The notes: generated from the letters alone by a model not told the origin. 64,000 nt of DNA from Candidatus Kerfeldbacteria bacterium (GCA_016182495.1 JACPGK010000008.1:2870-66869); one strand, 5' to 3'. Shown: positions 3,419 to 64,000, counted from the stretch's first letter. Program-made: numbers and translations.

Positions 3419-7696
<4,278 letters not shown>

Positions 7697-7702
7697 AGCT
7701 GT

Positions 7703-9120: not shown

Positions 9121-9171
9121 GCAGCTAGTGTAGCAGATTTATCTGAACCTGGGAACTCATTATTTGCTTTG

Positions 9172-12100: not shown

Positions 12101-15100
12101 TCAGGTGGCACGGTAGCTACACCTATCGTAGGAGGTTTGAATGATGGTGCCGGCGGCGTTGGCGCTGGAGAGACTGATTCTGGTGGCGTTGGCGCTGGAA
12201 GTGTTGGAGTTGGCTCTGAAGCGGCGGTATTTGGAGTAGCGGAGCCGACCTGGTGACGTTGAGTCCAAAGTTCTTCGATTTTTACACGAATAGCTTCAGG
12301 TTGAGAGCCATCAGGTAAACTAATACGAGCATCGTTCCATAAACTTATGCCTGCGGGTGTAGTGCGATCTGGTACAAGTGGTATCGCGGCGGTGGCAGGC
12401 ACAGTTGGTTCTGTAGCAACAGGTGCGGCTGACATTGCTACTTCAGCAGCATCTAAGGCTGGACTTGTAGGTACTGCTAGTATTGCCTGGTCGGTATCGC
12501 TACTACCTAAGTTTTCATCGAGCATGGTTTGTAATGGCGCGACTTCCGTTGCTTTTGATGCATGATCCGTCATTTGATAGATCTTTGCTAAACTAGCAGC
12601 TAACTTGGCTACTTTAGTTGAGTCAATTTGGCCAGGATTTTTGCCTTTACGCCGTTCAGTGACTAACACATTTAAAGCGGCTAGTTTTTGTGTATTAGGT
12701 AATTTGGCATTAATTCGTTCTATCGTATCAAGATACCTTTCCAATATTGTCGCTACCGCAGCCTGATCGCCAGAAAAAGCAGCACCTAATGCTTTGGTTA
12801 AGGCGGTGATCAATTCAACCGCCCGAACTTCTTTACCGCCAGCCTCTCTAAAATAGGTTTTCATGCCTTCAAGTACTGCTCCACGGCGTTTCTTTAAAGC
12901 AGTATCAACCTTTGTTTCTTCAGCATCAGCTACGGCTGCTGCAGTTAAAGTTGCCTCTGTATCATCGCCAGAGCTAGCTGCCGGAGTTGCTACGGATTCA
13001 TCGGCCGCTGATATAATACCAAATTGAGGAGCTGTCTCGGCAGCAGCGACGGGTTCGGGAGCCATCTTTTGTTTAGCTTCGGCAACTACTGCCGGTAAAT
13101 CTGCTACTGTAGCTGTGCCACCAAATACTCGCTCGTTATTAATAAAAGCAACCACTGTTATAGTGCCATCTGTGTGCGAGGTGTCGCTGACTGATAAACG
13201 TAATACATTGTTGTCACCTTGGTAGTGAAAATCAACTTGGTGTCGCTGGCCGCCAGTATCATCTATTCGGCCAAACGTATCAGGCGTAACTTTTACAATT
13301 GGAGACAATGTATCTAAATGCATACTAATCTCTCGATCATCATCTAGCACTACTGTTTCATCACTAGGCCGATATAATCGTATTCCAGGAATGTTGTAGT
13401 TACGCACTTCTGCATTAACCTCTGGAATGGACGGTTGCCGTTCAATTGGTGCACTTACCCGGCTGGTTGTTTCTTGTAAGTGTTTAACAATAATTACTTG
13501 CAGGGTAATATTATCGCCGCTGCCACTAGACCGACCCTGAATAGTTCTGGAATATAAATTAGCGATATCATTAACCCCCGGGCCTACTCGAACAATAAAA
13601 GGAGCTGTAGAATTATTCCGATCATAAGCTAATTTTATAACATCATTACGAATAGCTTCGACGTCACCAGGATGTTTAGCCACAATTAGCTCAATTTCAT
13701 ATTCACTCACCAAATCAGTAATAGCACCATCAGAACCAAGCAACATCACATCACCTACTGCGGCTTGAAACGAATCAAGCTCGTGTTCTGATGGACGATT
13801 CACATAATAACCACTCGTTCTTGATACTACATTATTGCCAACCCATCCATCTGACGTGTGAACTTTATGACTATAATATAATTTGGCAGCTTCGATGGGC
13901 GATAAATCATCCGCAGCCACTTTGGATTGCAAATCTTCAAACACGGCATTATGAGGCCGAGATGTGCCTGGACGATATACTGCACCACCACGAATAGTAA
14001 CCAACTTAGCATCACCAGCCCAACCATAATTAACTTGGCCGGTAGGCTGTAACTTTAAAAACACCGGGCAAGCATAGCCACCTGGTACAGTTTGTTTGAT
14101 AGTATCATGAACAGCCGTTAAGGCTTGATCAAGCGTACCATCATTCTGAAAAGCTTTCATGCTAGCATTTACACCTGCCAGAGCCGAAGCTCGGCCAGCA
14201 TCACTGCCGCCGGCGCCATCAATCACGCCGCTGAATACTGCACCATCCCGGCCAACTCCAGCAAACATAACATCTTCGTTGGTTTGATATTTTGAACCAG
14301 CTCCACCATTTTCGGTACTACCAGCCAAATGGACATAATCGGTTACAAATTTTAATTCCCCGAACTGTTTATCGGTAATAGCGCGGGCATCGCCTGGGTG
14401 AAATACTTCAAAACCAGTTGGCACTGGTTCTCCAGTTTCCACTGCTGGTGTTGGCTCGACGCCACTGGCAGGTATTGCTGCAGCTTCGGGTTCAGCCAGG
14501 CCTAGGGTAGTAGCATCCTCAATAACAGTTGCCCGAGCTACATAATCGGCTATCCAGCCAGCTGGCACCAAATTTTCCCAAAGTCGAACAACAGCTGGAT
14601 CAATTTCGTTATACTCGCCTCCAACTTTTTGACAAGCTTCACGCACTTTGCGTTTACATTGCTCTTGATCTTCAAGCTGAAGATTGTTTAAAAATCTCTG
14701 GAACGCTTGGCGTACTTCTTGAAAAGCTGGCAACCTAAAATAACTATATGGATGGTGTAAATCAGCTTGATAACCACGCTGATAATGTTCAATTTCCCGT
14801 TCAGTTAATTCTTCATGCGACGGTATTGGTATGTCAGACACATATTCACTAACGCCTAATGTCGCAAATTGACTAGTATGATCATAACCATCGGCTAATT
14901 GTTTATTAAATAGAGTACGAAAGCCGGTGCACAAATATGATTGCAATGCTGGTACAGTGGCAGCTTTAGTTTGAACATATTGTAGATAGTTACTGTTGGA
15001 CGACCAAGTAATATACGTCTCGCCAAAATAAAGGTTAGTTAAAAAATAGCGCCAGTCTTTTAAGCTCTCTGGCCGATTTTTTATATCAGCCAGTTCCATT

Positions 15101-48589: not shown

Positions 48590-49490
48590 TATTTTAATTT
48601 TATCGTGGAATGCCCCGCGGCATATTACCGCCTGCTTAGATAGTTTGATGGCGGCCACTGCCACTGGCGACGTTGAAATTATTGTGATCGATAACGCCTC
48701 AAGTAATCAGCTGGCTCATACACTGCGGCAGCGTTATCCAGCGATCCGCCTAGTGTGTAATCAAACGAATGTTGGCTACGCCTTGGGTAATAATCAAGCT
48801 TACCAATTAGCTCGCGGCCACTATAGTATGTTACTCAATCAAGATACGGTGGTAACGCCAGCAACGGTGCAGCAACTGATCAGCTTTTTAGATAGTCATC
48901 CTGGCTATGCTGCTGTCACACCAGTACTGCGTAATCCTGATGGCAGCCTGCAGTACTACATGCATCGCCGTTGGCCTACAGTTACTGGCCTACTATTGGC
49001 GTTGCTGCATAAACGCTGGCCTCGCTTTCAACCCAAATTGGTGCAACGCTATCTGTATTTAGATCAAACTTGGCAGCAAGATTTTGATATCGAACAAGCG
49101 GCCGGTGCCTGCCTAATGCTGCGACGTTCGGCCATTGTAGAACTAGGTGATTTGTTCGATGTCCGCCATTTTCCACTGTACTATAATGATGTTGATTTAT
49201 GTTATCGCTTAGCCCAACATCATCAAACTATCCGCTGCTTAACCACGGCCTCAATTGTACATGATAAAGGCACTAGTGTGCGCACCCTACCAGGAACCTT
49301 CAATGCGTTAGAATACGCCTACGCCTCGCTGTGGTTTTTTAAAAAGCATGGCCAGTGGTTTGATTTTTGGCTGTTACGTTTAGCCTATATTACCCTATTT
49401 ACTATCCTAGTGTTGTTTCGACCAGCGTATTATAAAGCCTGGCTGACAGCCGTTACCCTGAAGTATTACGGAATATTTCCGGTAAAATGA
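48570..49490 (+). CDS. GT2 glycosyltransferase
   Basis: It carries MSTPRLSILILSWNA...IIVIDNASSN, which is GT-A. The track ORF starts at 48555. Confidence 0.7.
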   Translation: MSTPRLSILILSWNAPRHITACLDSLMAATATGDVEIIVIDNASSNQLAHTLRQRYPAIRLVCNQTNVGYALGNNQAYQLARGHYSMLLNQDTVVTPATVQQLISFLDSHPGYAAVTPVLRNPDGSLQYYMHRRWPTVTGLLLALLHKRWPRFQPKLVQRYLYLDQTWQQDFDIEQAAGACLMLRRSAIVELGDLFDVRHFPLYYNDVDLCYRLAQHHQTIRCLTTASIVHDKGTSVRTLPGTFNALEYAYASLWFFKKHGQWFDFWLLRLAYITLFTILVLFRPAYYKAWLTAVTLKYYGIFPVK

Positions 49491-50947
49491 TATACCACCA
49501 CCAAAGCATCATTAAACTCGGGATGCTTGTGAAAATATTTTTTGGCATATAGTTTAATATCTTCGCGTATATGACGCTGATTGGGTTTGTTATAAATCAG
49601 CCACCCCCCGTGCTGACCAGACCGAGCTAAATCTTTAAAATCCTGTAACGATAAACTCTTATACCCACCTAATTTATACAGCGGCACAGATCGATTGGGC
49701 CAATAATAAAACCGGGGACCTTGAATTAACACAATCTCACCGGGTTGAATTTTTTCAGCCACGGCTTGGTAAACGCTACGCATATCAGGGTAGCCTAATT
49801 GGCTAGCCGATTGATCAGCTAACGCCTGACCAAATACCCCTGGTAAGGTGAGAACGGGACCAGTAATAATAAAGGTAGCCGCTACTACTACAGTTGCTAG
49901 CCAGCGCCAGCGCCGTAACTGTCGCCACACCAGTTGCAGTACCCAATACCAGCCGGTAGCGACCACTACATACACCAACGGCACAATAAAGCCAATGTAC
50001 CGTTGCGCTTCCCAGCGATGACTGAAAAATACAAAGTATGTCAGCACGACAATTACAATCATTGCGGCCATACCAGTAAAACTACGCCCAGTACGACTGA
50101 TCACACACCCCAATACAAACCAACCAGCTGCTAACCACGGCAGTAGCCAACTCGAAAATAACTGGGTAGCATACGTCCAGTGCGGTTGTTCACGTATAAT
50201 GACTGCATCCAGCGGCAAAAATCTCCACCATAGTTGATCAAGTGTGATGAGGCTAGCCACCAGCAGCAGCCCCAACCCAGTGGCCCAAGCCCAGGCAATA
50301 TCTTGAACGTGTCGCTGCCCTAAAAACAGTATGCCCCGACACAGTACATATACTCCGATGCCAGCTAGTAAGGCGAGCGTTAATTCTTTGAACACTAACC
50401 AATGCACTATGGTACTTACTATAAATCCACCCAGGTATATATAGCGCTGCCGACGCTGTGACCAGGCTGACAAAAATTGATACAAGCAATACACCATCAA
50501 AGTACTGAACACAATCACCATGGTATACATTCGCACATAGCGTGATAACCCAATCATCAAAGCATCAAAAGTGACTAACCAACTAGTCAATAGCGCAATC
50601 CACGGATTACCAGTCACTTGGCGCACTATAAAAAAAAGTACTGGTACTAAGGCTACGCCCCACAGCAAGGCTGGTAAGCGAGCGGCGGCTTCATTGATAC
50701 CAAACGCTTGCATACTAACAACCACCTGCCAAATAAATACAGCTGCCCGAGTATAGGGCTTAGCCACAGTAGCATGGTAAAAATCATAGCGGGCGTACTG
50801 GCCAGTGGTGATCAATCCGACGGCTGTTTCGAATTGTAAATACTCATCATGATAAAAATTAACCGCTCCTAAATTGACGGCTCGTAACCATAATGCCAAG
50901 CTGGTAATAAAGATAATGGCCAATGTTTGCCCAGATAGACTTTTCAT
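49466..50947 (-). CDS. GT-C fold membrane glycosyltransferase (ArnT/PMT-like, GT39/GT83-type)
   Basis: It is 493 aa and polytopic. The first extracytoplasmic loop carries the acidic HDE motif (FYHDEYLQFE) characteristic of polyprenyl-P-sugar-dependent GT-C enzymes. Confidence 0.65.
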   Translation of the reverse strand: MKSLSGQTLAIIFITSLALWLRAVNLGAVNFYHDEYLQFETAVGLITTGQYARYDFYHATVAKPYTRAAVFIWQVVVSMQAFGINEAAARLPALLWGVALVPVLFFIVRQVTGNPWIALLTSWLVTFDALMIGLSRYVRMYTMVIVFSTLMVYCLYQFLSAWSQRRQRYIYLGGFIVSTIVHWLVFKELTLALLAGIGVYVLCRGILFLGQRHVQDIAWAWATGLGLLLVASLITLDQLWWRFLPLDAVIIREQPHWTYATQLFSSWLLPWLAAGWFVLGCVISRTGRSFTGMAAMIVIVVLTYFVFFSHRWEAQRYIGFIVPLVYVVVATGWYWVLQLVWRQLRRWRWLATVVVAATFIITGPVLTLPGVFGQALADQSASQLGYPDMRSVYQAVAEKIQPGEIVLIQGPRFYYWPNRSVPLYKLGGYKSLSLQDFKDLARSGQHGGWLIYNKPNQRHIREDIKLYAKKYFHKHPEFNDALVVVYHFTGNIP

Positions 50948-50988: not shown

Positions 50989-52584
50989 ATGGCAAATAAA
51001 GCAGTCATTATTGGATTAGATGGTGCTACCTGGCAATTGTTCGATACTCTGCTGGCCGCTGGCATCATGCCTAATCTACAACGCATCATTCGCGGCGGTA
51101 CGCGGGCGGTGTTACGTTCCACCATGCCGCCGTACACTGCGCCAGCCTGGACCACCTTTGCTACCGGTGTCAACCCAGGCAAGCATGGCTGTTACGATTT
51201 TTTATTACCAACCGACAATTTGGAAAATTTTGATTTATGTAACAGTAACCATATTCGTACTGCTACCATCTATGAATTACTGCATCAGGCTGGCAAACGA
51301 TCAATCTTAATTAATTTACCAAATAGTTATCCGCCCAAGCTATCTAGTCCAACCATTACTGATATGCTGACCGTGGGAGATAATTGCGTTTTTCCGGAAA
51401 CTTTAAAAGCTCGCTATCCTGAATTACGGCGTTATCGGCTAGCACCCGATGAATCACTACAGGTCAAAGGTAAGCTCACCGAATATATTGATGATATTAT
51501 TGCGGTAGAGCGCGATCATATGGCTGTTGTCAAAACGTTGTGGCAGCATGAACCCTGGGATATGTTTTTTTATCTGTTTTCATCAACTGATTGGATTTCA
51601 CATGCCATGTTTAATCAGTTGTTGGAATTGCATCCTAAGGCTATGGAATTGTTCAAATTTATTGATGACCAGTTGGGTTGGTTTTGTGATCAGTTGCCGC
51701 CTGATGCCAATTTATACATTTTGTCCGATCATGGTTTTAAAGTGTACCACCATACTTTTTACTTTAATAAATGGCTTGAACAACAAGGCTACCTGGTTAC
51801 TCGCCCGGCGGCGGCTGATAGTTTTCACCAAAATATTAGCAAACAAGATGATCAACGCAGCAGTTTACAACAGCATAAGCGCTGGCATATTGGTATTAAT
51901 CAAACTACCTTGCACTGGCTAAGCCAGGTAAAACCAATTGAACGAGCGGCTCGCTGGCTATACCATCATGTTGCCAAACCGTTTTTACCAATCCGGTTTA
52001 GTTTGGATGTGACGATTGATTTCAGTAAAACCAAAGTCTGTTTTCCCAAAGGTCGTACCATGACCGCCATTTACATTAATGATGGTCGTAAATATCGTCA
52101 CGGACAACCCTTCACTGAAGCTGATTACTTGCAGTTGCGCGCGGCTGTGGCTAAAAAATTAGCCGCTGTCAAAGGGCCAGATGGCCAACCAGTTACTCCG
52201 CGAGTGTATACCAAAGAAGAAATTTATGGCACAACAGTACCAGAGCGTTGCCCCGATTTATTTTATGAATTTGGTGACTATTGGTTTGTCGGTCAATTTC
52301 ATTCTAGTGAATTATTTGTTAAGGAATTATCCAATAAACATGACCCGTTCGGTATGTTTGTAGCCTATGGGCCCACCATTAAAGCTGGCGCTCAATTACC
52401 CGAGCAACCGATCGCTGCGGTCACAGCGACAGTACTGCATGATTTGCAACAACCACTCCCACAGTATTTCGATGCCAAGGTGATGGATATTTTTACCCAA
52501 CCACAGCCAGTGCGTTACAGTAATCGAGCATTGGTGAATGAACATCAGGCTGTAACTGAACTAATCAATGAATTAGTCGTATGA
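50989..52584 (+). CDS. alkaline-phosphatase-superfamily protein, type I phosphodiesterase/nucleotide pyrophosphatase-like (paralog 1 of 3)
   Basis: The N-terminus VIIGLDGATW supplies the metal-ligand Asp. The candidate nucleophile is the Thr/Ser of T(A/V)PAWTTFATG. SDHGF and TDWISH are metal-ligand blocks. The protein is 531 aa. Confidence 0.75.
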   Translation: MANKAVIIGLDGATWQLFDTLLAAGIMPNLQRIIRGGTRAVLRSTMPPYTAPAWTTFATGVNPGKHGCYDFLLPTDNLENFDLCNSNHIRTATIYELLHQAGKRSILINLPNSYPPKLSSPTITDMLTVGDNCVFPETLKARYPELRRYRLAPDESLQVKGKLTEYIDDIIAVERDHMAVVKTLWQHEPWDMFFYLFSSTDWISHAMFNQLLELHPKAMELFKFIDDQLGWFCDQLPPDANLYILSDHGFKVYHHTFYFNKWLEQQGYLVTRPAAADSFHQNISKQDDQRSSLQQHKRWHIGINQTTLHWLSQVKPIERAARWLYHHVAKPFLPIRFSLDVTIDFSKTKVCFPKGRTMTAIYINDGRKYRHGQPFTEADYLQLRAAVAKKLAAVKGPDGQPVTPRVYTKEEIYGTTVPERCPDLFYEFGDYWFVGQFHSSELFVKELSNKHDPFGMFVAYGPTIKAGAQLPEQPIAAVTATVLHDLQQPLPQYFDAKVMDIFTQPQPVRYSNRALVNEHQAVTELINELVV

Positions 52585-54188
52585 CCAAAGCTGTTATTAT
52601 TGGTTTAGATGGTGCTACTTGGCGCTTACTTGATCCCCTGCTGCAGCAAGGTCGTTTACCAAATTTGCAGTATCTGATTGAGCATGGTGTTCGTCGCACG
52701 CTAATTTCAACCCGCCCCCCAGTAACGGTACCGGCTTGGACCACTTTTGCCACTGGAGTGCACCCTGGTAAACATGGCTGTTACGATTTTTTTCTACCGG
52801 GAAAAAGTATCCGCGACTTTCGACCAGCCACTAGCCAAGAAATTAAAGTACCAACGTTATACGAATTACTGCACGATCAAGGCAAAAAAGTAATTTTAAT
52901 GAACCTGCCCAATTCGTATCCACCGCGCGTACCAGCGATGACTATGGTATCCGATTTCATGACCATTGGCGATCAAGCCGTTTTTCCCGCCAGCCTGTTA
53001 GAAAAATATCCGGTGCTTAAACGTTATCGCTTATCGCCCGATGAGCGCCTAAAATTAACGACCGATAACGATGCATATATTCAACACATTATTGATTTAG
53101 AAAAAGATCGTTTAGCTGGCATGAAGGAATTATTTATTCATGAACCTTGGGATATATTCTTCTTTTTGTTTTCCTCAACTGATTGGGTATCGCATTTAGT
53201 ATTTTACGATATGCTGACACAGCATCATCCAACCGCCTTGCAAGTGTTTGATGTGGTAGATGAATTTTTTGGTTGGCTGCGACAACAATTACCAGCCGAA
53301 GCTAATTTATATATTATGTCCGATCACGGTTTTACCTATTATACTGAACTGTTTTATATTAATCGCTGGCTGGAACAACAAGGCTACTTGGTGACTCGAT
53401 CTGGTGCCGGACAATTAGAACAAGATGCTACCGCTCGGCGGCGCAATTTGGCAGCGGCGCGAAGCCAGCGCAGGCGTTGGCGAATTTCAAAACGATGGCT
53501 GAATATATTATTTTTTCATCCAGTGATTGAACGAACCATGAAGTGGTGTTACCATCATATTGTGAAACCATTTTTTCCGGTGCATATCACTGTTGATGTG
53601 GGCATTGATTTAGATAAAACCAAAGTGTGTTTTCCGCGCGGTAGTATGTTACAAACCTTGTACCTCAACTATCAAGGTAATTTTAAAGAGGGCCTCATTA
53701 CCGATCGGACAGAATACGATCGTGTACGGCAAGAGGTGAAAGAAAAATTAGAAGCTCTGTACACACCGTCTGGTAAGCGCGTCACCGAGCATGTCTATAC
53801 CAAAGAAGAATTGTACGGTAACCAGCCACCAACGCCATCGCCGGATTTACATTGTGTCACCAAAGATGTTTGGATTGTTGGCCATTTACATTCAAAAGCT
53901 ATTTTTGAACAGGCAATATCGAATAAACACGACGAATTTGGAATTTTTATCGCCTATGGGCCGGATATCGTGGCTGGTGAACAACTGGCCGAAGCCAATA
54001 TTGCTGATATCGCGCCTACCATTTTGCATCAATTCAACAGTTTGATTCCAAGCTATACCGATGGTCGGGTGCTGTTGGATATTTTTCAAAACCAGGCTGA
54101 ACCAGCCCAGCGACCAGTGCGTTTGAGTCAAATTGAACGGTCTGAAAAAACTCAACTCAATGAATTAGTCGACAATTTGGTAATTTAA
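52581..54188 (+). CDS. alkaline-phosphatase-superfamily protein, phosphodiesterase/NPP-like (paralog 2 of 3)
   Basis: It is roughly half identical by eye to paralog 1 across the whole length. The same IGLDGATW / PAWTTF / NLPNSYPP / HEPWD / STDWVSH / SDHGF blocks are present. Its start overlaps the stop of paralog 1. Confidence 0.75.
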   Translation: MTKAVIIGLDGATWRLLDPLLQQGRLPNLQYLIEHGVRRTLISTRPPVTVPAWTTFATGVHPGKHGCYDFFLPGKSIRDFRPATSQEIKVPTLYELLHDQGKKVILMNLPNSYPPRVPAMTMVSDFMTIGDQAVFPASLLEKYPVLKRYRLSPDERLKLTTDNDAYIQHIIDLEKDRLAGMKELFIHEPWDIFFFLFSSTDWVSHLVFYDMLTQHHPTALQVFDVVDEFFGWLRQQLPAEANLYIMSDHGFTYYTELFYINRWLEQQGYLVTRSGAGQLEQDATARRRNLAAARSQRRRWRISKRWLNILFFHPVIERTMKWCYHHIVKPFFPVHITVDVGIDLDKTKVCFPRGSMLQTLYLNYQGNFKEGLITDRTEYDRVRQEVKEKLEALYTPSGKRVTEHVYTKEELYGNQPPTPSPDLHCVTKDVWIVGHLHSKAIFEQAISNKHDEFGIFIAYGPDIVAGEQLAEANIADIAPTILHQFNSLIPSYTDGRVLLDIFQNQAEPAQRPVRLSQIERSEKTQLNELVDNLVI

Positions 54189-54190
54189 TT

Positions 54191-55786
54191 ATGGCCCAAC
54201 CAAAAGTAATCGTGATTGGTTTAGATGGTTCCAGTTGGGAACTCGTCAACCAATTGCGCGCTGAACAACAACTGCCTGCCCTGGAAAAAATGATCAATCA
54301 GGGTATGAGCAGTACGATGTACTCGACTCATCCAGCTCATAGCGCTCCGGCCTGGACCAGTTTTGTCACCGGCGTACCACCCACCGAGCATGGTTGTTTA
54401 GATTTCTTGGTGGTACATAATGATATTACCGATTTAGACATTATTGATAGCACCAAAATCAAACAGGAAACTATCTATGAAGCCATGGTACGACATGGTC
54501 GCCGGCCAATTTTAATCAATTTACCGAATACCTTTCCGCCAAAATTAAAAGATGCCATTACCATTACCAGTTTAATGACACGCGGTGAAAAATTTATTTT
54601 TCCGGCCAGCTTGAAACAGCGCTATCCCGAATTGCAGCACTATCGCCTATCACCTAATGCCAAGTTACGCTCAAAAGATCAGTTCGATGCCTACGTTCAA
54701 GATCTCTGTCAGCTAGAACGCGATCGCATCGCCGCAGCTAAACAATTACTGCTGCACGAACCTTGGGATTTTTTCTTTTATCTTTGCTCTGGCACCGATT
54801 GGGTATCGCACGTGGTGTATGATCAAGCGGTGCAACACCACTATCAACCGGCTTTAGAGATGTGGCGCCTGATGGATGAATTTATTGGTTGGGTGATGCA
54901 ACAGCTGGACGATGACACTATTATATACGTCATATCGGATCATGGTTTTAAAGTGTACGATTCTATTTTTTATGTTAACCGCTGGCTGGAAGAACACGGC
55001 TATCTAGCCACCACCGCCGGTACCAGTTCGTTTCAACAAACCCATACCAAACTGTCACGTGAAGTAGCCAAAGTACAACAACGACAGTTCCAGTTCAATG
55101 TTGGTAAACGACTGCGTAATGTACTGCGTCATTCGCCACGGTTAGAACAAGGTGCTAAATGGTCGTATCATCATATTATTAAACGGTTTGTACCGGTGAA
55201 TGTGAAGATTAATTTACAACTTGATCTCACCAAAACCCAAGTGGGCTTTCCACGCGGCTCGATGGCCAGTTTGTTGTATGTCAACGATCAAGTTCGGTTT
55301 CGTCATGGCATTGTGCCAGCCAACCAACGGGCCAGCCTAACCCAGCAACTCCAGCAACAATTGCAAGCCATTACTGATCCTGGTGGTCAACCAGCCATTG
55401 CCCAGGTATACACCACTGAACAACTGTATGGTAACCGCGCTATGGCCATTGCCCCTGATTTATTTTTACAGCCAAACCAGCATTATTTATCAGGCTCATT
55501 ACATTCGGCAGCTTTGTTTGAAAACACTTCCAAAAATTATCATGATGATCAAGGGATGTTTTTAGCCTATGGCAAAGCCATTGCTCATCAACCGATGTCA
55601 GATAGTTCTATTATGCAAATGGCCCCAACCATTATGCATAGTTTGGGCTTACCGCTATTGCCACAATTCAGCGCTACCGTGATGGACATTTTTGCTTCTA
55701 CCAGTTCGCTACATCAACCAGCCCAGTACGAAGGCTCATCTGAACAAGCTGACCTACGTACTATCATTAACACTATCGAGTTGTAA
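54191..55786 (+). CDS. alkaline-phosphatase-superfamily protein, phosphodiesterase/NPP-like (paralog 3 of 3; Ser at nucleophile position)
   Basis: The same motif set is present but more diverged (IGLDGSSW, SAPAWTSF, CSGTDWVSH, SDHGF). It is colinear with paralogs 1 and 2. Confidence 0.7.
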   Translation: MAQPKVIVIGLDGSSWELVNQLRAEQQLPALEKMINQGMSSTMYSTHPAHSAPAWTSFVTGVPPTEHGCLDFLVVHNDITDLDIIDSTKIKQETIYEAMVRHGRRPILINLPNTFPPKLKDAITITSLMTRGEKFIFPASLKQRYPELQHYRLSPNAKLRSKDQFDAYVQDLCQLERDRIAAAKQLLLHEPWDFFFYLCSGTDWVSHVVYDQAVQHHYQPALEMWRLMDEFIGWVMQQLDDDTIIYVISDHGFKVYDSIFYVNRWLEEHGYLATTAGTSSFQQTHTKLSREVAKVQQRQFQFNVGKRLRNVLRHSPRLEQGAKWSYHHIIKRFVPVNVKINLQLDLTKTQVGFPRGSMASLLYVNDQVRFRHGIVPANQRASLTQQLQQQLQAITDPGGQPAIAQVYTTEQLYGNRAMAIAPDLFLQPNQHYLSGSLHSAALFENTSKNYHDDQGMFLAYGKAIAHQPMSDSSIMQMAPTIMHSLGLPLLPQFSATVMDIFASTSSLHQPAQYEGSSEQADLRTIINTIEL

Positions 55787-55790
55787 TTAT

Positions 55791-57260
55791 ATGTCGCAGG
55801 CTCGCCAATTGTTACAGGTGATTGCCCGTTTAGTGACATCGCGTTTACTCTATCGCATTCTGGTAGCACTATCAATTATCATCGCTTCTAATTATCTCAT
55901 TACCATTCCCGAACTGTCGGATATTTTTGATGTGGCCAGTGCGGCGGTCAGTATTATTATGATCGGCAGCGAAGTGGGCATGAGTATGGTGTTGATGCGG
56001 CATGGCGCCGAACAAAATCGTGAAAAATTACGGCCGTACTATGGCACCGCTTTAGTAATTGAATCACTGGCTTGGCTGGGTTTGTTTGCCAGTATTATTG
56101 GTGGTTACGCCGTGTTCAATGGTTTCACAACCATGTTTTGGTTGCTGGCAATTTTGGGTGTCAACCAAGCGATCATTCAGTATCGAGTGGTCATTCGATC
56201 AATCTATCGTAGTTTACGTGATAATGAAACCATTACCTATATTGAAATAATTGATGGGGCCTGCAAATTGCTGGGTGTTTGGCTGATTACGCATTGGATC
56301 AGCAATCCAATCACTGGGGCTTACTGGATTGCCTTGCTCTATACCATCACCACCATCATATTTATTGGGCTGTACGGTTGGCATTCATTTAGTTTGGTGA
56401 AACCGCTGATCCAGTGGTCATTACGTAGCGGTATGATTAAAGAAGGGGTGTGGTATAGCTTGCAAGGCTTGATTATGACCGTGTATTTTGAAATTGATAA
56501 ATTAATCATGCGCTTGTTTCAAAGCACCGGCTGGGCGGATATCGCGGCTGGTGATATTGCTCGTTATGGTGCGGCCGCTCGCTTGATTGTGTTTTTTTTA
56601 GTATTTCATCGCATTGGTTTACAAGTAATCACACCTGATTTATATGCTTCGTTTGCTACGAATAAAGATCGTTACCGGCGGATTGTTCAATGTTCTACGC
56701 GCTACATGGGAGCCTTTGGCATAGCTCTAGGCACTGGCTTGATTGTGCTAGCCGATGATATTATGCACCTGTTGTATCGAGCTGAATTTTGGAGCGCCAT
56801 TCCAGCCTTGCAACTATTTGGCGCTTTTTTAATTATTCGATTTATTGGCATTACCTCCAGTCAAGTGTTGGCTACTACCGGTAATCAACCCTTACGCACT
56901 CGCCAAGAAGGCTATGCCGTGGTGGTAAATATTGTGCTCGATATTATTCTTATTCCCCGTTACGGCTTTATGGGTGGAGCCATGGCTACCTTAGCCACTG
57001 AATTACTATTTCAAAGTATCTTTTTTGTGATGACCCGCCGGTTAATTCAGGATTCCATCAGTCGCAGTCTGTGGCAAATTGTGCCGGCTCTGGCTGCCGG
57101 GTTGGTGATGGGTATGGTGATATGGTTTTTAAAACCGCTGGTGCTACTTTGGCTACTGCCGTTGATTGGCGCGGCCGTATTTGTACTGTTATTATGGTTG
57201 TTTCGTTTTTTCAATGAAGCAGATTTCAAGTTACTCAAAAAAACTCCGACTGTCATTTGA
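55791..57260 (+). CDS. second Wzx-like flippase / polysaccharide biosynthesis membrane protein
   Basis: The ATG at 55791 (MSQARQLLQ...) was verified on the sequence. It is about 490 aa with 12+ TM helices. The track ORF begins upstream at 55692 inside the preceding gene. Confidence 0.7.
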   Translation: MSQARQLLQVIARLVTSRLLYRILVALSIIIASNYLITIPELSDIFDVASAAVSIIMIGSEVGMSMVLMRHGAEQNREKLRPYYGTALVIESLAWLGLFASIIGGYAVFNGFTTMFWLLAILGVNQAIIQYRVVIRSIYRSLRDNETITYIEIIDGACKLLGVWLITHWISNPITGAYWIALLYTITTIIFIGLYGWHSFSLVKPLIQWSLRSGMIKEGVWYSLQGLIMTVYFEIDKLIMRLFQSTGWADIAAGDIARYGAAARLIVFFLVFHRIGLQVITPDLYASFATNKDRYRRIVQCSTRYMGAFGIALGTGLIVLADDIMHLLYRAEFWSAIPALQLFGAFLIIRFIGITSSQVLATTGNQPLRTRQEGYAVVVNIVLDIILIPRYGFMGGAMATLATELLFQSIFFVMTRRLIQDSISRSLWQIVPALAAGLVMGMVIWFLKPLVLLWLLPLIGAAVFVLLLWLFRFFNEADFKLLKKTPTVI

Positions 57261-57322
57261 CGTAAATATTAGTTTTGTCTATACTTAAAATGTTCACATA
57301 CATAAGCATATATTTTAAGTAT
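57257..57322 (+). promoter_or_regulatory. near-consensus sigma70 promoter (TTGACG-17-TATACT) overlapped by an 11-bp inverted repeat that also covers the start codon of the AAA+ gene
   Basis: TTGACG lies at 57257-57262 and TATACT at 57280-57285. The repeat arm ATACTTAAAAT at 57281-57291 is the exact reverse complement of ATTTTAAGTAT at 57312-57322, with a 20-nt spacer. The right arm contains the AT of the ATG at 57321. Confidence 0.5.
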
Positions 57323-58535
57323 GATTAAAACCTATATTCGGCGCCCTGTCTATTGGCAAAAAATTGCTCCCTTTGTTGGTAAAGATATCATTAAGGTAAT
57401 TGTTGGCCAACGACGGGTAGGTAAAAGTTATTTTTTATTTCAGATCATGGACGAAATAAAAAAAACTAACCCCAAAGTTAATTTTATTTATCTTAACAAA
57501 GAATCAGAGGAATTTTCTGCTATCAAAACAGGTAAGGATTTGTTGGTTTTTGTCGCTAAAAAAGTTTCCCGTCGCCATAAAAATTGTATCTTTATTGATG
57601 AAATTCAAGAAATAGACGGTTTTGAAAAAGCGTTACGTCATTTGTCCGCTCAAGGTGGCTATGATATTTATTGTACTGGTTCTAATGCGCATATGTTATC
57701 TTCGGAAATTGCCACTGGTTTATCGGGACGTTATGTGGCAGTGACCATGCATAGTCTATCGTTCCCTGAATTCCTAATTTTTCACCAATTAAAAAAAGGT
57801 GAGGATACTTTATTTAAATATATTCGTTATGGCGGGCTGCCATATATCATTAATCTAGAATTAACCGATGAGGTTGTGTATGATTATTTAAAAAATATTT
57901 ATAACACCATTTTGCTTAAGGATGTAGTAGCTCGGTTCGGAGTGCGTAATATCAATTTTTTGGAACGATTGGTAGTGTATCTGGCTGATAATATCGGTAG
58001 TTTTGTGTCAGCTAAAAAAATTAGCGATTTTTTAAAATCCCAAAATATACGAATATCGCCTAATATCGTTCTCAATTATTTATCCTATTTAGTGGCTGCG
58101 TATTTTATCAGCCCAGTGAAAAGATCAGATATAAATGGTAAAAGAATTTTTGAAATCAATGAAAAATATTATTTTGCAGATCTAGGATTGCGCCAGGCGT
58201 TGATCGGTTATCGTCAGGTGGATATAGGAAAAATTTTAGAAAATCTAGTATATAATCACTTACAATTTTTAGAATATACTATTACCGTGGGGAAAAGTGG
58301 TGCCAAAGAAATTGATTTTATCTGTGAAAAAGCTGGAGAAAAACTATATATCCAAGTGGCTTATTTGCTTCCGGATGAAAAAGTCAAAGCCAGAGAATTT
58401 GGCAATCTGTTGCAGATAGCCAACAATTATCCTAAACTGGTAGTTTCTCTAGATGTCATGGCTGGCGGTAATTATCAGGGAATACACCATCTTCATCTGT
58501 TAGATTTTTTAACGAATAACCACTACCCCCTATAA
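57321..58535 (+). CDS. AAA+ ATPase of the AAA_14/DUF4143 (COG1373-like) family
   Basis: The Walker A is VGQRRVGKSY and the Walker B is CIFIDEIQ. The C-terminal DUF4143-like region has a restriction-endonuclease-like EIDFI...YIQVAY block. The gene is conspicuously AT-rich relative to both flanks. Confidence 0.75.
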   Translation: MIKTYIRRPVYWQKIAPFVGKDIIKVIVGQRRVGKSYFLFQIMDEIKKTNPKVNFIYLNKESEEFSAIKTGKDLLVFVAKKVSRRHKNCIFIDEIQEIDGFEKALRHLSAQGGYDIYCTGSNAHMLSSEIATGLSGRYVAVTMHSLSFPEFLIFHQLKKGEDTLFKYIRYGGLPYIINLELTDEVVYDYLKNIYNTILLKDVVARFGVRNINFLERLVVYLADNIGSFVSAKKISDFLKSQNIRISPNIVLNYLSYLVAAYFISPVKRSDINGKRIFEINEKYYFADLGLRQALIGYRQVDIGKILENLVYNHLQFLEYTITVGKSGAKEIDFICEKAGEKLYIQVAYLLPDEKVKAREFGNLLQIANNYPKLVVSLDVMAGGNYQGIHHLHLLDFLTNNHYPL

Positions 58536-60962
58536 AGCCGTAGTTGAGCTGCGGTTTGGTTTGTTCGATTGTCGGTACGTACTGATCAATTGTTTTAATA
58601 ATAAAACTGGGATGGGTAATGTTACCAGCCACAATACATAGTATTCCAGTTGCAATAGTACTCCCCACGATAATAAAAATGTAATCACATCAACCGTGCC
58701 AATGTGTAAGCCCGATTTTAACACAATCTCGGGTTTGCGCTCTTGTAAAAAAATACTTTTTTTGGCTTCCCGTAAATACCCAACTAATAAATTACCCAAC
58801 ATGGCGGCAAAGGCCAGATACACTATCCATACACTATGCCCCACGTAGCCAAACGCCAGGTCGGTAAATTCCATCGGTACCGGGGCCAGTGGTGCAAACC
58901 AATATAATTGCCAAGCCATTGCGCCAAACCATATAATTTCTTTCACCCGATCAGAAATACTATCAAACCAAATGCCAAACTTGCTGCCCCGCCCTAACAT
59001 GCGCGCCACTTCACCATCAGAACAATCAAAAGCAAACGACAATTGAATACACGTAAATGCCAGCACTCTACCCCACCAAGTGGGATACAATAACCCGACC
59101 GCTCCAATACCACCAACCACAAAAGAAATAATCGTTACATCCGGCGCGGTAATTCTAGGAAATAATTTTAATGAATAATACGTGAGGTACTTCGAAATCC
59201 GCCGGTAAATTAAACGACTAAATATACTGTCGTGCGGCTGTTGATATTGAATAATATCGTGTGGTGAAGTTGGTAATGGCACAAAATAGTAGTTAGTATG
59301 TATAGTATTTAGTATAAAATTATACGTGGCCACTGGTTCGAGTTGCGCTATATTCAATAACCGTTGTTCATCGGCATTAGCGCTGCCATCATACCACAGA
59401 TATAACTGATAGTCTGTAGTGAGCTCTCTCAAAAAACTATACACCTGATTCACCGGCGGTTTTTCTTTTGGCTTACGCGGAAATCGAATCACCCGAGCCG
59501 CACTATGGGTCATGATGGTTTCTGAAATACCGGCTTGCCAATCTCCTACCATCAGCAGCAAAGCATTGTTTGGTAACTGTTCGGCCATAGCTTTTAATTG
59601 ATGTAAATCATCTCGGGTAATAGCTTTATATACCGGATCAGCCTCACGATTATGTCGCTGTCGTTCGGCGATTGAAGGTTGTAACGACACAAAAAATGAT
59701 CCGATGAACACCATTACTAACGCAGTCCAACTCCAGCGTTGCAATTGCAGTTTTTGTTGCAACCATAGTACACCAGTAACACTGCCATAGGCCGCCAGTA
59801 AGGTAATTACCGGTACGGCTGGAATTAAATAGCGTGGATATGGATTGATCCAAGCACTAAACAACAAAAATAACGGCCCAAACCAAACTAGTAACATCAC
59901 AGCGGTAGATTTTTGTGCGCGCCATAATAGTATCAAACCAACTGCTGCTGCCAGTAAAAATAAGGGCCAAGTACTCACTGCAGTCAACACCTCCCAGTAC
60001 TGTTTTAACCCACCCACCCCGGGACGAAATTTTCCTTGATTGTTATATAAATTCTGTAGCTGTAACGACCGTACATGATCAAAATTCGAGGTAATGGCAA
60101 TGCGACTAATATCTTTGTCGCGAAATTTTTCTTTATGCAGAGTAATATTCACTGAATTCCATAATGATAGCGATCCAACGCACACTGCCCCAATCAAAAA
60201 TACGCCCACTACTTGATAGCGCTGGGCTGTGTTCCACTGCCGCCACCATTGCCAGCCAAGCACAATGAATACCCCCAATAAAATGCCACTGGTTTCTCGA
60301 ATATTAACGCTCATGCCATAGCTGGCTCCGGCGCCCAGCCATAACCCAAGCTGGCACCACCATCGTTTGGTTACGGGCAATAGTAATATCAGCCACAGCG
60401 CCAGCATGAAAAAAAATAATGCTGGTATTTCACGCATTGGTTGGGCTACGGCATAATTGGCATACAAACTAGCTAAGCCTAAACTTAAAGCGGCCATTAC
60501 AGCGCTGGCGCGTTGCAAGGCGGGTGGCAACTGAAATAACCGGAGCGCTAACAGATAAGTGAGCAGCACCACTCCCACCGCTAACCCTGGTTCCACATCA
60601 TACCAGGCTTCATCGCTGCCTGATATTTTTGCAACGCTATACAGCAACCAACCTAAACCAATCGGATAGCGCGAAGCAATCCAGCCAGTTGAAGAGATAA
60701 TTTCATGATGCGTCGGCGCCACAAATCGAGCAAATTTTTCATCGCCAAAATAGGTTAAGGCGCGTTGTACCAGGCTATCCTGGCTCACTAATGGTTCATC
60801 AGCCCACCACTGCCCGGCCGTATATAAGTAGCCAGGGGCATCATCCCCCCACGATCCCCAGGCATGACTGGTGATATAAAAAAAACCAAAAATCAACGTC
60901 AGTAGCGCTAGTATAATGCCATCGATTATCCACCACCATTTAGGCGAAGTAGCTGTGTTCAT
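58530..60962 (-). CDS. 810-aa polytopic membrane protein: GT-C-like N-terminal membrane domain fused to a C-terminal CDP-alcohol phosphatidyltransferase domain
   Basis: The C-terminus holds the complete signature D646-x2-D-G-x2-A-R-x8-G-x3-D-x3-D671 ([29 protein letters not shown], about nt 58950-59027) inside a 6-TM block. The N-terminal roughly 430 residues are 10+ TM helices with an acidic first loop ([13 protein letters not shown]). A roughly 170-aa soluble linker lies between them. The start overlaps the cysC stop (ATGA). Confidence 0.7.
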
Positions 60963-61567
60963 GCAGCCCGCAGTACGCCACGCTGTTGCAATTGGTGTAC
61001 CAATTCAGCTAGGGCTGGCTCGACCGTTTGGCGTTCGGTGTTAATTGTAATGTCAGGTGCAATGGGTGCTTCATAGGGCGCCGAAATGCCGGTAAATTCT
61101 GGAATAGTGCCAGCGCGAGCTTTGGCGTACAACCCTTTGGTATCACGCTGTTCACAAGTTGCCAACGAACACTCCACATACACTTCAATAAATTCGCCTG
61201 GCTCGACCATGGCTCGCACCAAATCGCGGTCGGCCTGGTAAGGAGAAATAAAAGCGGTCATAGCAATAGTGCCACTATCAACCAATAATTTAGCCACCTC
61301 GCCAATTCGACGAATATTTTCGGTACGATCAGCCGCCGAAAAACCTAAATCACTATTTAACCCATGCCGAATATTATCTCCATCTAGGCGATACACCCGA
61401 TAATTACGCTCAAACAAATATTGTTCTAAGGCAACCGATAAGGTTGATTTCCCCGAGCCTGATAAACCAGTAAACCATACAATACAACTAGTATGCTTGG
61501 CCTGATCACGACGTTGTTGTTTTGATACAGCACTATCATGCCACACAATATTGGTTGCTGCTATCAT
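60959..61567 (-). CDS. cysC: adenylyl-sulfate (APS) kinase
   Basis: It has the P-loop GLSGSGKST and the APS-kinase blocks ([21 protein letters not shown]). The protein is 202 aa. Confidence 0.9.
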
Positions 61568-62565
61568 ACTTGAATACTGGCTACCTTGGCTTGTAATTTT
61601 GGAAATATCTCATTCAATTGCTCACGGGGAATAATAATACCGACCACTTCTTCTTTGCCGCCAGCATTTAAACCAAGGTCGCGAGCAAATTGAATCAGTT
61701 GACGCATATCGTACTGCAATTGGCGGCGCCGAATATAACACGTATACTGATCAGCTTTTAATTGGCGGGTAAAAATAATTTTATCTGGGTACTGGCGAGA
61801 GATATTACGCGTCACGTGCGATAAAATATTCAGCGACGTATGCAAATCTAAAAACAACACTTGATTACTCAAGGCTTGTGGAGCTTGTTCCAATAAACGA
61901 TCAATTTCTCCCCCAATCTGCTGCAGATTATTTTCTAGTTTTACATCGGTCAATAACGCTAGTGGATCGTGGCGTAATAATTGAATGGTATCATGCATGC
62001 CACTATAATCATCAACCATATAGTTCGAATCAATCAACCGGCGCAAGGTGAGTAATTGAGCAAAGCTAATATTATACTGTTGCATCATTTCTGCTACCCA
62101 GGGATAGTACTGTGTATCTTGTTGAATTGATTCTTCTCGATCCCCCACCATGGCAATGGCCGCCAACAAATTATTGGCTAAGCCCAGGGTGGCGGTGATA
62201 AATGAGGCGCAAGCTGGATGAGGTTGATTAAAATAATGAACCTGGCGATACGGCGTTTGGTGATGGTGATCAAAAATGTAGGTTTGATCAGGCCAAACTC
62301 GCGCCAAGCCATTAACCGTTTGTTCAGGAAAATTAATATCACAGGTAATAGCAAATTGATACTGGGCGTCACTAAGCTGTTGCAACTGCTGGGCCGTTAA
62401 ATAGTAATTGGTAATCGTTGGAACAAAGGTAGTCAGTTTTTTTTCTGGAAACCGTTCAGCGAGATAATTGAATAGCACGGCGGCGGAACATAGCCCATCA
62501 GTATCCCAATGATGGATAATAACACCATGGCGTTGACTAGTAGTGAGGGTTTGAAAAGGATCCAT
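61564..62565 (-). CDS. DHH-family phosphoesterase (NrnA-like; candidate 3'-phosphoadenosine 5'-phosphate phosphatase)
   Basis: DHH motifs are present (HHWDTDG, IFDHHHQ) with a DHHA1-like C-terminus. It sits between sat and cysC with 4-nt overlaps at both junctions. Confidence 0.65.
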
Positions 62566-62570
62566 AAAAT

Positions 62571-63719
62571 TCAGTCAACAAAAATTTGAGCTTGTTGAAT
62601 TAACAGTTCAGAAATTTCCGGTCGCATAATTTCGGTGGGAACTACTTCACCAGCCTGCAGCAATTTTCGAATCACCGTACCGGATGGACCAGTACGATCA
62701 GCTTCGCTATGGCCACAGGTTTTACTAGTAGCGATAGTTTCACACCGTTTGCAGTGGAAGCTATTTTCTAATTTCAAAATAGTAATGCCAATATCTTCAA
62801 GGCTGTTAAAAATTTCTTGGCCAGCATAGGTGCCGTAGTAATTACCCACTCCAGCATGATCACGCCCAACAATAAAATGACTACAGCCGAAATTTTTACG
62901 AATAATGGCATGTAAAATAGCTTCGCGTGGCCCGGCATAGCGCATTTGTAAAGGAAGAATAGATAATACTACACGCTGGCGAGGATACACCTGTTTAGCC
63001 ATGTAATCGTAGGCGGCTAAAATAGCTTGATCGGTAAAATCACCGGTTTTCTTTTTACCGATGACTGGATTAATAAATAAACCATCAGTTAATTCTAGAC
63101 CAATGCGCTGTAAATACTCATGAGCACGGTGCGGAGCGTTGCGCGTTTGAAAACCAGTCACCGTGGTCCAGCCTTTTTCCTGAAACAGTAAGCGAGTTTC
63201 CAAAGGGTCTAAATTATATTGATTAAAAGGTTCTTTAGAGTTATCAATTAATTCAATATCGCCACCCAGCAACACCGGTTGCCACTGCTGTACCATGGCT
63301 ACGCCAGGATGCTCATTATCACTAGTACCAAATACCTGTTCAGCCACTACCTTGGCATCGCAACTATATTTATCTTGCACCATCATCACGGCTACGGCTT
63401 GATCAACCTCATCAACCAGCAACACTTGTTCGCCAATGGTGATATCATCACCAACCGTTTGTGTTACATCTAATACAAACGGAATGGGCCACACCGTGCC
63501 GTTGGCTAATTTCAAATGATGCACCACGCTTTCAAAATCAGTTTTGCCCATAAAACCGGTCAGCGGACTGTACACCCCCCGAGCAATATTCTTAACATCT
63601 TTGACTAACTCTTCGTGTAAACGAATATGGCGTAAATGGCCAGACCGTTCTTGCAAGCGTTGAGCATCCTCATTGCGCAATACTCGATTGATCAATAAAT
63701 TGCCGTGCGGTTCAATCAT
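62571..63719 (-). CDS. sat: sulfate adenylyltransferase (ATP sulfurylase)
   Basis: The QTRNAPHRAHE block and GRDHAG, both diagnostic for ATP sulfurylase, are present. The protein is 382 aa. Confidence 0.9.
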   Translation of the reverse strand: MIEPHGNLLINRVLRNEDAQRLQERSGHLRHIRLHEELVKDVKNIARGVYSPLTGFMGKTDFESVVHHLKLANGTVWPIPFVLDVTQTVGDDITIGEQVLLVDEVDQAVAVMMVQDKYSCDAKVVAEQVFGTSDNEHPGVAMVQQWQPVLLGGDIELIDNSKEPFNQYNLDPLETRLLFQEKGWTTVTGFQTRNAPHRAHEYLQRIGLELTDGLFINPVIGKKKTGDFTDQAILAAYDYMAKQVYPRQRVVLSILPLQMRYAGPREAILHAIIRKNFGCSHFIVGRDHAGVGNYYGTYAGQEIFNSLEDIGITILKLENSFHCKRCETIATSKTCGHSEADRTGPSGTVIRKLLQAGEVVPTEIMRPEISELLIQQAQIFVD

Positions 63720-63722
63720 GCC

Positions 63723-63950
63723 TTAATCAAGGTAGCCTAAATTCTTCAAGCGTTCACGAATTTTATCTTCGTCGGCTTGAGAATAGGTATGATCTTGTTT
63801 CGTTTGAGCAGAACTGGTCTGCTGTTTTTTTTCAACGACTTGTTGCAAAATATAACTAACGTAGCTGGCCACATCGGAAAATTCTTTGCTCTGCTGCACA
63901 ATTTTTTCTAACTGCGCATATACTTCATCGGGGAGTTGCACTTGAGCCAT
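63723..63950 (-). CDS. small ribbon-helix-helix (CopG/Arc-like) protein, putative regulator heading the sat operon
   Basis: The N-terminus MAQVQLPDEVYAQLEKIVQQ matches the RHH beta-strand/helix-A pattern (hydrophobic-x-LPDEhY-x2-L). It is 75 aa and lies immediately 5' of sat with a 3-nt gap. Confidence 0.45.
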   Translation of the reverse strand: MAQVQLPDEVYAQLEKIVQQSKEFSDVASYVSYILQQVVEKKQQTSSAQTKQDHTYSQADEDKIRERLKNLGYLD

Positions 63951-64000
63951 ATACTATTCAAATTAATTCATTAAACATTACCGCGCGATACTGCTTAATC

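Follow-up and report, generated by a model that had tools for sequence, protein, structure and literature searches.

A sulfate-activation and PAP-recycling gene cassette in an envelope glycan locus of a Candidatus Kerfeldbacteria bacterium, with a probable role in glycan sulfation

Introduction

Classical bacterial sulfation joins the synthesis of 3'-phosphoadenosine 5'-phosphosulfate (PAPS) to a canonical sulfotransferase, as in the rhizobial nodPQ/nodH system and in the mycobacterial cysDNC system with its Stf enzymes. Here we describe a cassette of genes for sulfate activation and for the recycling of 3'-phosphoadenosine 5'-phosphate (PAP) in a 64-kb stretch of DNA (hereafter the window) from Candidatus Kerfeldbacteria, a bacterium of the candidate phyla radiation (CPR, Patescibacteria). 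The cassette lies inside an envelope glycan/lipoglycan locus and, with a probability that we put at roughly 0.7, serves glycan sulfation.

The closest described system is archaeal. MtPAPP, a PAP phosphatase of Methanothermococcus thermolithotrophicus, was discovered through the adjacency of its gene to those for ATP sulfurylase and adenosine 5'-phosphosulfate (APS) kinase; it releases phosphate from PAP at about 50 µmol/min/mg with high specificity, and is assigned to an assimilatory sulfate pathway in which PAP is converted to AMP and inorganic phosphate (Jespersen & Wagner 2023, PMC10322725). Its Mn ligands are His6, Asp8, Asp10, Asp57, His76, His77 and Asp127 (PMC10322725). The accessible part of that paper presents the family as archaeal, with 168 archaea, makes no mention of bacterial members, and postulates a non-canonical sulfotransferase for archaea (PMC10322725).

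Results

Five tightly packed open reading frames (ORFs), all on the minus strand and reading in the same direction, lie within 58.5-64.0 kb of the window, as a preliminary description made from the sequence had proposed. The last of them, of 810 residues, has two parts, which are given separately below it.

63723..63950, minus strand: 75-residue protein (s75), an ORF with homologues that precede sat or the PAP phosphatase gene (PAPP) in CPR and archaeal loci
62571..63719, minus strand: ATP sulfurylase (sat), with PUA-like and catalytic domains (PF14306 and PF01747; NF003166)
61564..62565, minus strand: predicted MtPAPP-type DHH/DHHA1 PAP phosphatase of 333 residues, from its profile match to PDB entry 8A8K, AlphaFold (AF2) and Foldseek comparison, and metal ligands
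60959..61567, minus strand: APS kinase (cysC; PF01583, NF003013), with an ATGA overlap at either end
58530..60962, minus strand: 810-residue ORF, in which a CDP-OH_P_transf domain (residues 610-734) is the sole recognisable domain
59283..60962, minus strand: polytopic membrane protein (N563 family) lacking its last 14 codons and stop codon, found downstream of cysC in CPR loci
58530..59282, minus strand: CDP-alcohol phosphotransferase (PF01066), a stand-alone gene of 250 residues in relatives

The ATGA overlap that joins cysC to the 810-residue ORF can be read directly. Overlaps of 4 nt had been claimed for both junctions of the DHH gene: the DHH/cysC junction is indeed an ATGA overlap, but sat and the DHH gene are separated by a 5-nt spacer, and s75 and sat by one of 3 nt. 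The operon begins beyond 63.95 kb, since a co-directional array continues upstream of s75: a GT4 glycosyltransferase gene ends 7 nt ahead of s75 (window 63951-64000; 6578-7596 in L001, a sibling assembly of the same population), and in L001, where the upstream context was read for 7.6 kb beyond the window end, the array reaches at least that far. The 63.9-64.0 kb region, earlier suggested as a possible binding site of the s75 protein, is not a promoter region. A scan for promoters and terminators gave no signal above shuffled expectation, and neither tRNA genes nor Rfam matches were found in the window.

The surroundings are those of a glycan locus. Upstream, the sibling assembly encodes a GT4 glycosyltransferase, GtrA, a polyprenyl-phosphate-sugar-type GT2 glycosyltransferase, two epimerase/dehydratases of the short-chain dehydrogenase/reductase (SDR) type, UDP-glucose 6-dehydrogenase, an AglJ-like GT2 and a further GT4. 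Convergent to the cassette operon run genes for three paralogs of the alkaline phosphatase fold (AlkP1-3) and a flippase-like membrane protein, and further along the window there are GT2 and GT4 genes, a Wzx-like protein, a PMT/Agl23-like glycosyltransferase of the GT-C type and dTDP-rhamnose genes.

The two enzymes of PAPS formation were identified before and hold at curated cutoffs. Sat matches PF01747 (9e-85) and PUA_2 (PF14306), scores 497 bits for NF003166 (cutoff 387) and 385 for TIGR00339 (cutoff 323), and its translation contains the QTRNAPHRAHE and GRDHAG motifs; CysC matches PF01583 (1.6e-68), scores 308 bits for NF003013 (cutoff 163) and 271 for TIGR00455 (cutoff 139), and contains the P-loop GLSGSGKST. 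Sat would form APS from ATP and sulfate, and CysC would phosphorylate APS to PAPS.

The DHH protein between them matches PF01368 (4e-10), with a weak DHHA1 match (E 0.005); a protein identical to it is on deposit under Candidatus Kerfeldbacteria. A profile of 33 homologues searched against the PDB finds 8A8K, the MtPAPP structure, at E 4.7e-67, far ahead of all others, in a full-length alignment (profile positions 11-337 to chain residues 19-332); archaeal RecJ-like proteins come next at 1e-9, and no NrnA or pyrophosphatase chain appears at E<=1. The AF2 model (predicted local distance difference test score, pLDDT, 96) likewise has 8A8K at Foldseek ranks 1-2, with a template-modelling score (TM-score) of 0.78-0.82, a root mean square deviation of 3.2 and about 25% identity; RecJ-like structures follow, and TM-scores to NrnA, GdpP and PggH are 0.3-0.5. 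H19, D21, D23, D76, H100, H101 and D142, invariant in the 33 homologues, correspond in that order to the seven Mn ligands of MtPAPP. Among DHHA1 residues that may bind the nucleotide, S249, R253, Y277, R279 and G302-G303-K304 show little or no variation and occur as the same residues in the 8A8K alignment, the GGK standing, as in MtPAPP, where NrnA-type DHHA1 domains have a GGGH motif. Sequence and model thus support well the assignment of an MtPAPP-type PAP phosphatase within a PAPS-forming operon, and a PAP-specific 3'-phosphatase activity is predicted. The preliminary description had cast the protein as an NrnA-type enzyme that clears PAP; the PAP role stands, on a full-length homologue of MtPAPP, but the NrnA type is rejected, because GGK, the PDB profile search and the Foldseek result all speak against it. 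A family II inorganic pyrophosphatase was rejected as well, there being no DHHA2 Pfam match and no such enzyme among the PDB profile matches or the top 50 Foldseek structures. With an enzyme of this type on record since 2023, the operon joins a known kind, of which it is apparently the first bacterial example.

Relatives of the DHH protein were sought in one genome per species of the Genome Taxonomy Database (GTDB), which gave 266; the best 80 comprise about 20 Patescibacteria together with Thermoplasmatota, Bathyarchaeia, Methanosarcinales and Asgard lineages. Neighbours were labelled in 84 loci by phmmer and all-against-all clustering. The order sat-PAPP-cysC is kept in about 50 of them, across two domains of life, and the longer order s75, sat, PAPP, cysC recurs in both CPR bacteria and archaea. 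This conservation and the homology to MtPAPP support the earlier view that the operon both makes PAPS and clears the resulting PAP. A protein of about 200 residues that matches Sulfotransfer_1 and carries the 5'-phosphosulfate-binding (5'-PSB, here ERSGTS) and 3'-phosphate-binding (3'-PB) motifs goes with the cassette in 25 archaeal loci, and in 15 archaeal loci a Na/sulfate symporter follows. Since the homologous archaeal cassettes carry a sulfotransferase and a symporter, the cassette is taken as one for sulfation in most archaeal hosts; with CPR cassettes themselves placed in glycan loci, the earlier proposal of a sulfated surface glycan gains support.

That minimal archaeal sulfotransferase family is unrecognised by NCBIfam (L038, L041, L051, L052, L062, L064, L066, L070, L079 and others). 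Its gene stands after cysC or between PAPP and cysC, often with the symporter and two NTP-transferases next.

The window offers neither a reductive outlet for PAPS nor a canonical sulfotransferase, as had been noted. A Pfam search of every window ORF of at least 120 residues found no cysH, APS-reductase-like gene or sulfite reductase, nor did the 7.6 kb upstream or 16 related CPR loci contain one, and among the same window ORFs there was no match to sulfotransferase families (PF00685, PF13469 and relatives); the 7.6 kb upstream lacks a canonical sulfotransferase too. A hidden Markov model (HMM) of the archaeal sulfotransferase found nothing in the window at E<=10, and a 5'-PSB motif scan that recovered 24 of 24 positive controls returned no hit either for the window or for those 16 CPR loci, taken with up to 10 kb of flank per side. 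The searchable literature gave nothing relevant on CPR sulfation or on archaeal glycan sulfotransferases. In Haloferax, Agl7 (HVO_2046) is needed for DolP-hexose to be sulfated, and it was considered as a possible AlkP-fold protein.

A canonical Sulfotransfer_3 gene (1-243) is present in one CPR relative, L092, some 14 kb from its sat-PAPP-AlkP-cysC cassette (7123-9678). A sulfoquinovose route through an SQD1-like epimerase was considered and rejected, since for UDP-sulfoquinovose synthase, with its cutoff of 575 bits, the SDR genes upstream reach only 53, and nothing that could supply sulfite is seen.

The AlkP-fold paralogs had been named as acceptor-enzyme candidates, and gene order in CPR and Asgard loci strengthens that suggestion. 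They resemble nucleotide pyrophosphatases of the NPP family and form, with their membrane partner, the convergent operon:

50989..52584, plus strand: AlkP-fold NPP-like paralog 1, soluble, a candidate PAPS/APS-using transferase (PF01663, 3.8e-34)
52581..54188, plus strand: AlkP-fold NPP-like paralog 2 (PF01663, 3.4e-37; AF2 pLDDT 90)
54191..55786, plus strand: AlkP-fold NPP-like paralog 3 (PF01663, 2.4e-31, with a weak Sulfatase match besides)
55791..57260, plus strand: polytopic mem522-family membrane protein, probably acting as a flippase-type partner to AlkP1-3 (MurJ match in the L090 homologue)

AlkP1-3 score 110-129 bits for PF01663 (cutoff 23). They have no transmembrane segment or signal peptide and are predicted to be cytoplasmic with an intact active site, the metal ligands D10, D201, H205, D248, H249 and H450 being invariant and the nucleophile T/S49 lying within a T-x-P-A-W-x4-T-G motif. 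The best Foldseek matches of the AlkP2 model are NPP-family nucleotide pyrophosphatases (TM-score 0.65-0.70, target-normalised, E 1e-16), and in sequence comparison PhnA and NPP are matched at no better than about 1e-11.

In 8 loci of a basal CPR clade and in 4-5 loci of Frey-/Jordarchaeia, PAPP and cysC have an AlkP gene between them; the same slot holds a canonical sulfotransferase in L046, L065, L078 and L080 (Sif-/Borrarchaeia and one metagenome-assembled genome of Methanomicrobia). AlkP genes occur in 17 cassette loci as against none of the 28 loci with PAPP only, and three more distant CPR homologues (39-41% identity) also adjoin sat, PAPP or cysC. On a complete Freyarchaeota chromosome GT2 genes, three AlkP genes, the cassette, UDP-glucose dehydrogenase and epimerases lie together, with no canonical sulfotransferase within 10 kb. 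Because their family recurs with the cassette, in part in the slot of the canonical sulfotransferase, AlkP1-3 are the best candidates for PAPS- or APS-consuming sulfuryl transfer, though as yet tentative ones. That the cassette-linked NPP-like AlkPs of Patescibacteria and Asgard archaea form a new sulfotransferase class in place of the P-loop-like canonical one is possible, if still doubtful.

In the CPR locus L091 (7200-11605) the order is 75-residue protein, AlkP (466 residues), sat, AlkP (534 residues), with neither PAPP nor cysC within 10 kb, a hint that some lineages could use APS in place of PAPS as substrate.

The first gene of the cassette, previously unremarked, encodes the 75-residue s75. 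It is homologous across domains (pairwise E 1e-14, CPR against archaea), with a beta-alpha-alpha-like pattern over its N-terminal 40 residues, an acidic linker and an invariant C-terminal D-E-x5-R-L-x2-L-G-Y motif. It has no significant sequence match in Pfam, NCBIfam or the PDB. The 75-residue gene ahead of sat had been described as a small ribbon-helix-helix protein; the gene is there, but the fold is unconfirmed, a plausible guess from sub-threshold matches (E 0.02-0.09: RHH_7 at 0.02, a VapB-type antitoxin family at 0.05, RHH_1 at 0.06 in 3 of 35 members, RHH_5 at 0.09), with hhalign giving 7% probability against CopG. The protein may be a conserved accessory or regulatory subunit.

The 810-residue ORF, earlier read as a CDP-alcohol-transferase fusion, is the product of a deletion. 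Relative to the sibling assembly the window lacks 47 bp at 59314/59315 (L001 12232-12278), comprising the last 14 codons and stop of a 563-residue membrane gene and 3 nt of spacer, and the loss joins that gene in frame to the 250-residue CDP-alcohol transferase. The deleted stretch has its end within an 11-bp inverted repeat (AGTATTTAGTA / TACTAAATACT), in the left arm. The deletion reflects either variation between strains or an error of assembly; other assemblies and all related loci that reach the junction (L001, L003 and others) keep two separate genes. The linker had also been named as a possible home of the sulfotransferase, and was rejected: it consists of 11 residues made by the deletion over stop codon and spacer, and is therefore not a domain.

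The CDP-alcohol transferase itself scores 36.5 bits for PF01066 (cutoff 22) and has the complete D-x2-DG-x2-AR-x8-G-x3-D-x3-D signature; its NCBIfam matches, all below cutoff, are to IPCT/DIPPS, archaetidylinositol-phosphate synthase and PIP synthase, so that it appears closest to the PIP, AIP and DIPP synthases. The N563 membrane protein, always downstream of cysC in CPR loci, has no PDB sequence match. Since it carries an invariant GDD close to the N-terminus and one relative matches PMT_2 weakly, it is probably a GT-C-type glycosyltransferase.

Several further features of the neighbourhood deserve mention. The mem522 membrane protein, without a Pfam or NCBIfam match in the window, recurs beside the cassette in CPR and several archaeal loci. 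Its mechanically called ORF starts at a TTG and overlaps AlkP3 by 95 nt (55692-55790); in the sibling gene calls it has 489 residues, which places the start at the ATG at 55791, 4 nt past the AlkP3 stop. Wedged between the two convergent operons is an AAA_14/DUF4143 ATPase gene (57321-58535, plus strand), which looks like a strain-specific insertion because L006 has a methyltransferase gene at this position and L010 none. The PMT-family GT-C gene (49466-50947, minus strand) has as its best NCBIfam match archaeal Agl23, flippase-activity-associated (E 4e-11, below cutoff), a similarity that gives the glycan locus one more part with an archaeal flavour. A CarS-like gene (CDP-archaeol synthase family, PF01864, E 2e-19; 2867-3418, minus strand) adjoins gyrB. 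A 2220-residue ORF (9172-15834, minus strand) has no Pfam match at all, and the adjacent 620-residue protein has MAM-like, TIG and fn3 domains; both are probably surface proteins. In L092 a trio of NTP-transferase, glycerol-1-phosphate (G1P)-dehydrogenase-like iron-dependent alcohol dehydrogenase (Fe-ADH) and CDP-OH transferase genes suggests glycerol-phosphate decoration.

Discussion

The sulfation of an envelope glycan accounts best for this locus. PAPS from the cassette would provide the sulfate for an envelope glycoconjugate that contains uronic acid and is linked to polyprenol or lipid, and the DHH protein would, in a Mn-dependent reaction, strip the 3'-phosphate from PAP, the inhibitory remnant of PAPS after sulfate transfer, to give AMP. 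Sulfuryl transfer would fall not to a canonical sulfotransferase of the locus but perhaps to AlkP1-3, as the likeliest candidates; with a Thr/Ser nucleophile at a site of two metals, these may form a covalent sulfo-Thr/Ser enzyme intermediate, with PAPS as donor, or APS where cysC and PAPP are absent.

A number of points weigh against this account. The chemistry of NPP enzymes normally attacks phosphorus, not sulfur, and no sulfotransferase of the AlkP superfamily was found in the searchable literature. The window AlkPs are of the long type only and lie in the convergent operon outside the cassette, rather than being of the short type embedded in it. AlkP and canonical sulfotransferase genes occur together in L078, L080 and L092, so the one has not cleanly displaced the other. 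The cassette is also incomplete in places: sat is missing at the locus in L006, L012, L015 and L090 though PAPP and cysC are present, and L091 has sat and AlkP but, within 10 kb, neither PAPP nor cysC. Locus counts are not independent, because the loci are phylogenetically related. Finally, PAP clearance alone is no proof of sulfation, because the prototype of the phosphatase, MtPAPP, is assimilatory.

The strongest alternative, to which we give somewhat less than an even chance, keeps the sulfated glycan but places a canonical sulfotransferase outside the window and leaves the AlkPs another step of the glycan pathway, possibly phosphodiester or pyrophosphate cleavage, or phospho-alcohol transfer by way of the CDP-alcohol transferase in a teichoic-acid-like decoration. 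Such roles would suit a family, PF01663, whose enzymes are phosphodiesterases and pyrophosphatases and which also includes phospho-alcohol transferases; the closest structures are nucleotide pyrophosphatases. A CDP-OH transferase is encoded nearby and, in relatives, is joined by the NTP-transferase and G1P-dehydrogenase-like Fe-ADH, while the distant Sulfotransfer_3 gene of L092 and the presence of both a sulfotransferase and an AlkP gene in L078 and L080 also fit this alternative. It sits less easily with the motif scan, negative for the window and the 16 CPR loci, with the insertion of AlkP into a sat-PAPP-AlkP-cysC order in CPR bacteria and in Asgard loci that have no CDP-OH transferase, and with the AlkP genes that flank sat in L091.

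We consider it improbable that the cassette instead feeds assimilatory sulfate reduction, with a reductase encoded elsewhere converting PAPS to sulfite, PAPP removing the PAP so formed and the glycan neighbourhood incidental. Neither a PAPS/APS reductase nor a sulfite reductase was found in the 64 kb or the 7.6 kb upstream, the cassette is translationally coupled to membrane genes of the glycan locus in those CPR loci that extend past cysC, and the homologous archaeal cassettes carry a sulfotransferase and not a reductase. To our knowledge, moreover, CPR bacteria are generally without amino-acid biosynthesis. What speaks for such a role is that MtPAPP, the only characterised family member, serves an assimilatory pathway (PMC10322725). 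Very unlikely indeed is a DHH protein with a general rather than a PAP-dedicated role, either in degrading nanoRNA or cyclic dinucleotides, in the manner of NrnA, GdpP or Pde2, or, as a family II pyrophosphatase, in drawing the sulfurylase reaction forward. Promiscuity is frequent among DHH/DHHA1 enzymes, NrnA of B. subtilis having both activities, and pyrophosphate removal would aid sat thermodynamically, but MtPAPP, whose invariant GGK the protein shares, is described in the accessible part of its report as highly PAP-specific (PMC10322725), the fold is far nearer to MtPAPP (TM-score about 0.8) than to NrnA, GdpP and PggH, no NrnA or pyrophosphatase chain came up in the PDB search at E<=1 and no family II pyrophosphatase among the top 50 Foldseek structures, and PAPP remains beside cysC in loci without sat.

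Envelope sulfation thus remains the preferred reading, and it has several implications. The DHH-type PAP phosphatase, described as an archaeal invention, extends to CPR bacteria, and the whole cassette, the 75-residue gene included, is common to Patescibacteria and archaea (Thermoplasmatota, Asgard groups and others). Sulfated CPR envelope glycoconjugates would mean that ultra-small episymbiotic bacteria spend ATP on envelope sulfation, a surface feature that could matter for host attachment. If the AlkP proposal is true, this class supplies the non-canonical sulfotransferase postulated by Jespersen & Wagner, and the family becomes a candidate for the missing enzyme also in methanogens and other archaea that have ATP sulfurylase, APS kinase and PAPP with no recognisable sulfotransferase or reductase. 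The recurrent pairing of the cassette with an NPP-like AlkP where a canonical sulfotransferase would be expected, and the conserved 75-residue protein, are worth pursuing.

Compared with MtPAPP and its neighbourhood in M. thermolithotrophicus, the enzyme described here has the same arrangement of DHH domain, linker and DHHA1 domain, the same metal ligands, GGK and S..R and Y.R residues, is likewise encoded beside ATP sulfurylase and APS kinase, and is predicted to play the same role, PAP to AMP and phosphate. It differs in its CPR bacterial host and in sharing only about 25% identity, and its locus differs in having no APS-reductase-like PAPS reductase nearby, in its placement among glycan genes, in the conserved 75-residue first gene and in the coupled membrane transferase genes. 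PAP removal is also a job of NrnA/YtqI of B. subtilis, with which the DHH/DHHA1 fold is shared, but that enzyme belongs to another subfamily with GGGH, has no sequence-level match and reaches a TM-score of 0.3-0.5. The CysQ-type PAP phosphatases perform the same physiological job with an unrelated fold, as the accessible part of the MtPAPP report has it (PMC10322725).

The archaeal cassettes of Thermoplasmatota and Borr-/Sifarchaeia are homologous in s75, sat, PAPP and cysC and keep the same order. They often lie near NTP-transferases and a mem522-like membrane protein, a homologue of which is also in the window; the window lacks their small canonical sulfotransferase and symporter, and instead has the NPP-like AlkP paralogs, the N563 membrane protein and the CDP-alcohol transferase. 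AlkP1-3 have the same fold as the NPP/PF01663 enzymes (Xac NPP, ENPP1-7, PhnA), and likewise their two-metal site and T-x-P…T-G nucleophile motif; they differ in their predicted cytoplasmic location, in an extra C-terminal region of about 200 residues, in having 11-15% identity to solved structures and in their tight linkage to sat, PAPP and cysC. Set against classical bacterial sulfation, finally, the window has a sat of the homo-oligomeric type rather than CysDN, no P-loop-like 5'-PSB sulfotransferase in the locus, and PAP clearance within the operon itself; what the two would have in common is a set of PAPS genes dedicated to an envelope or secreted glycoconjugate.

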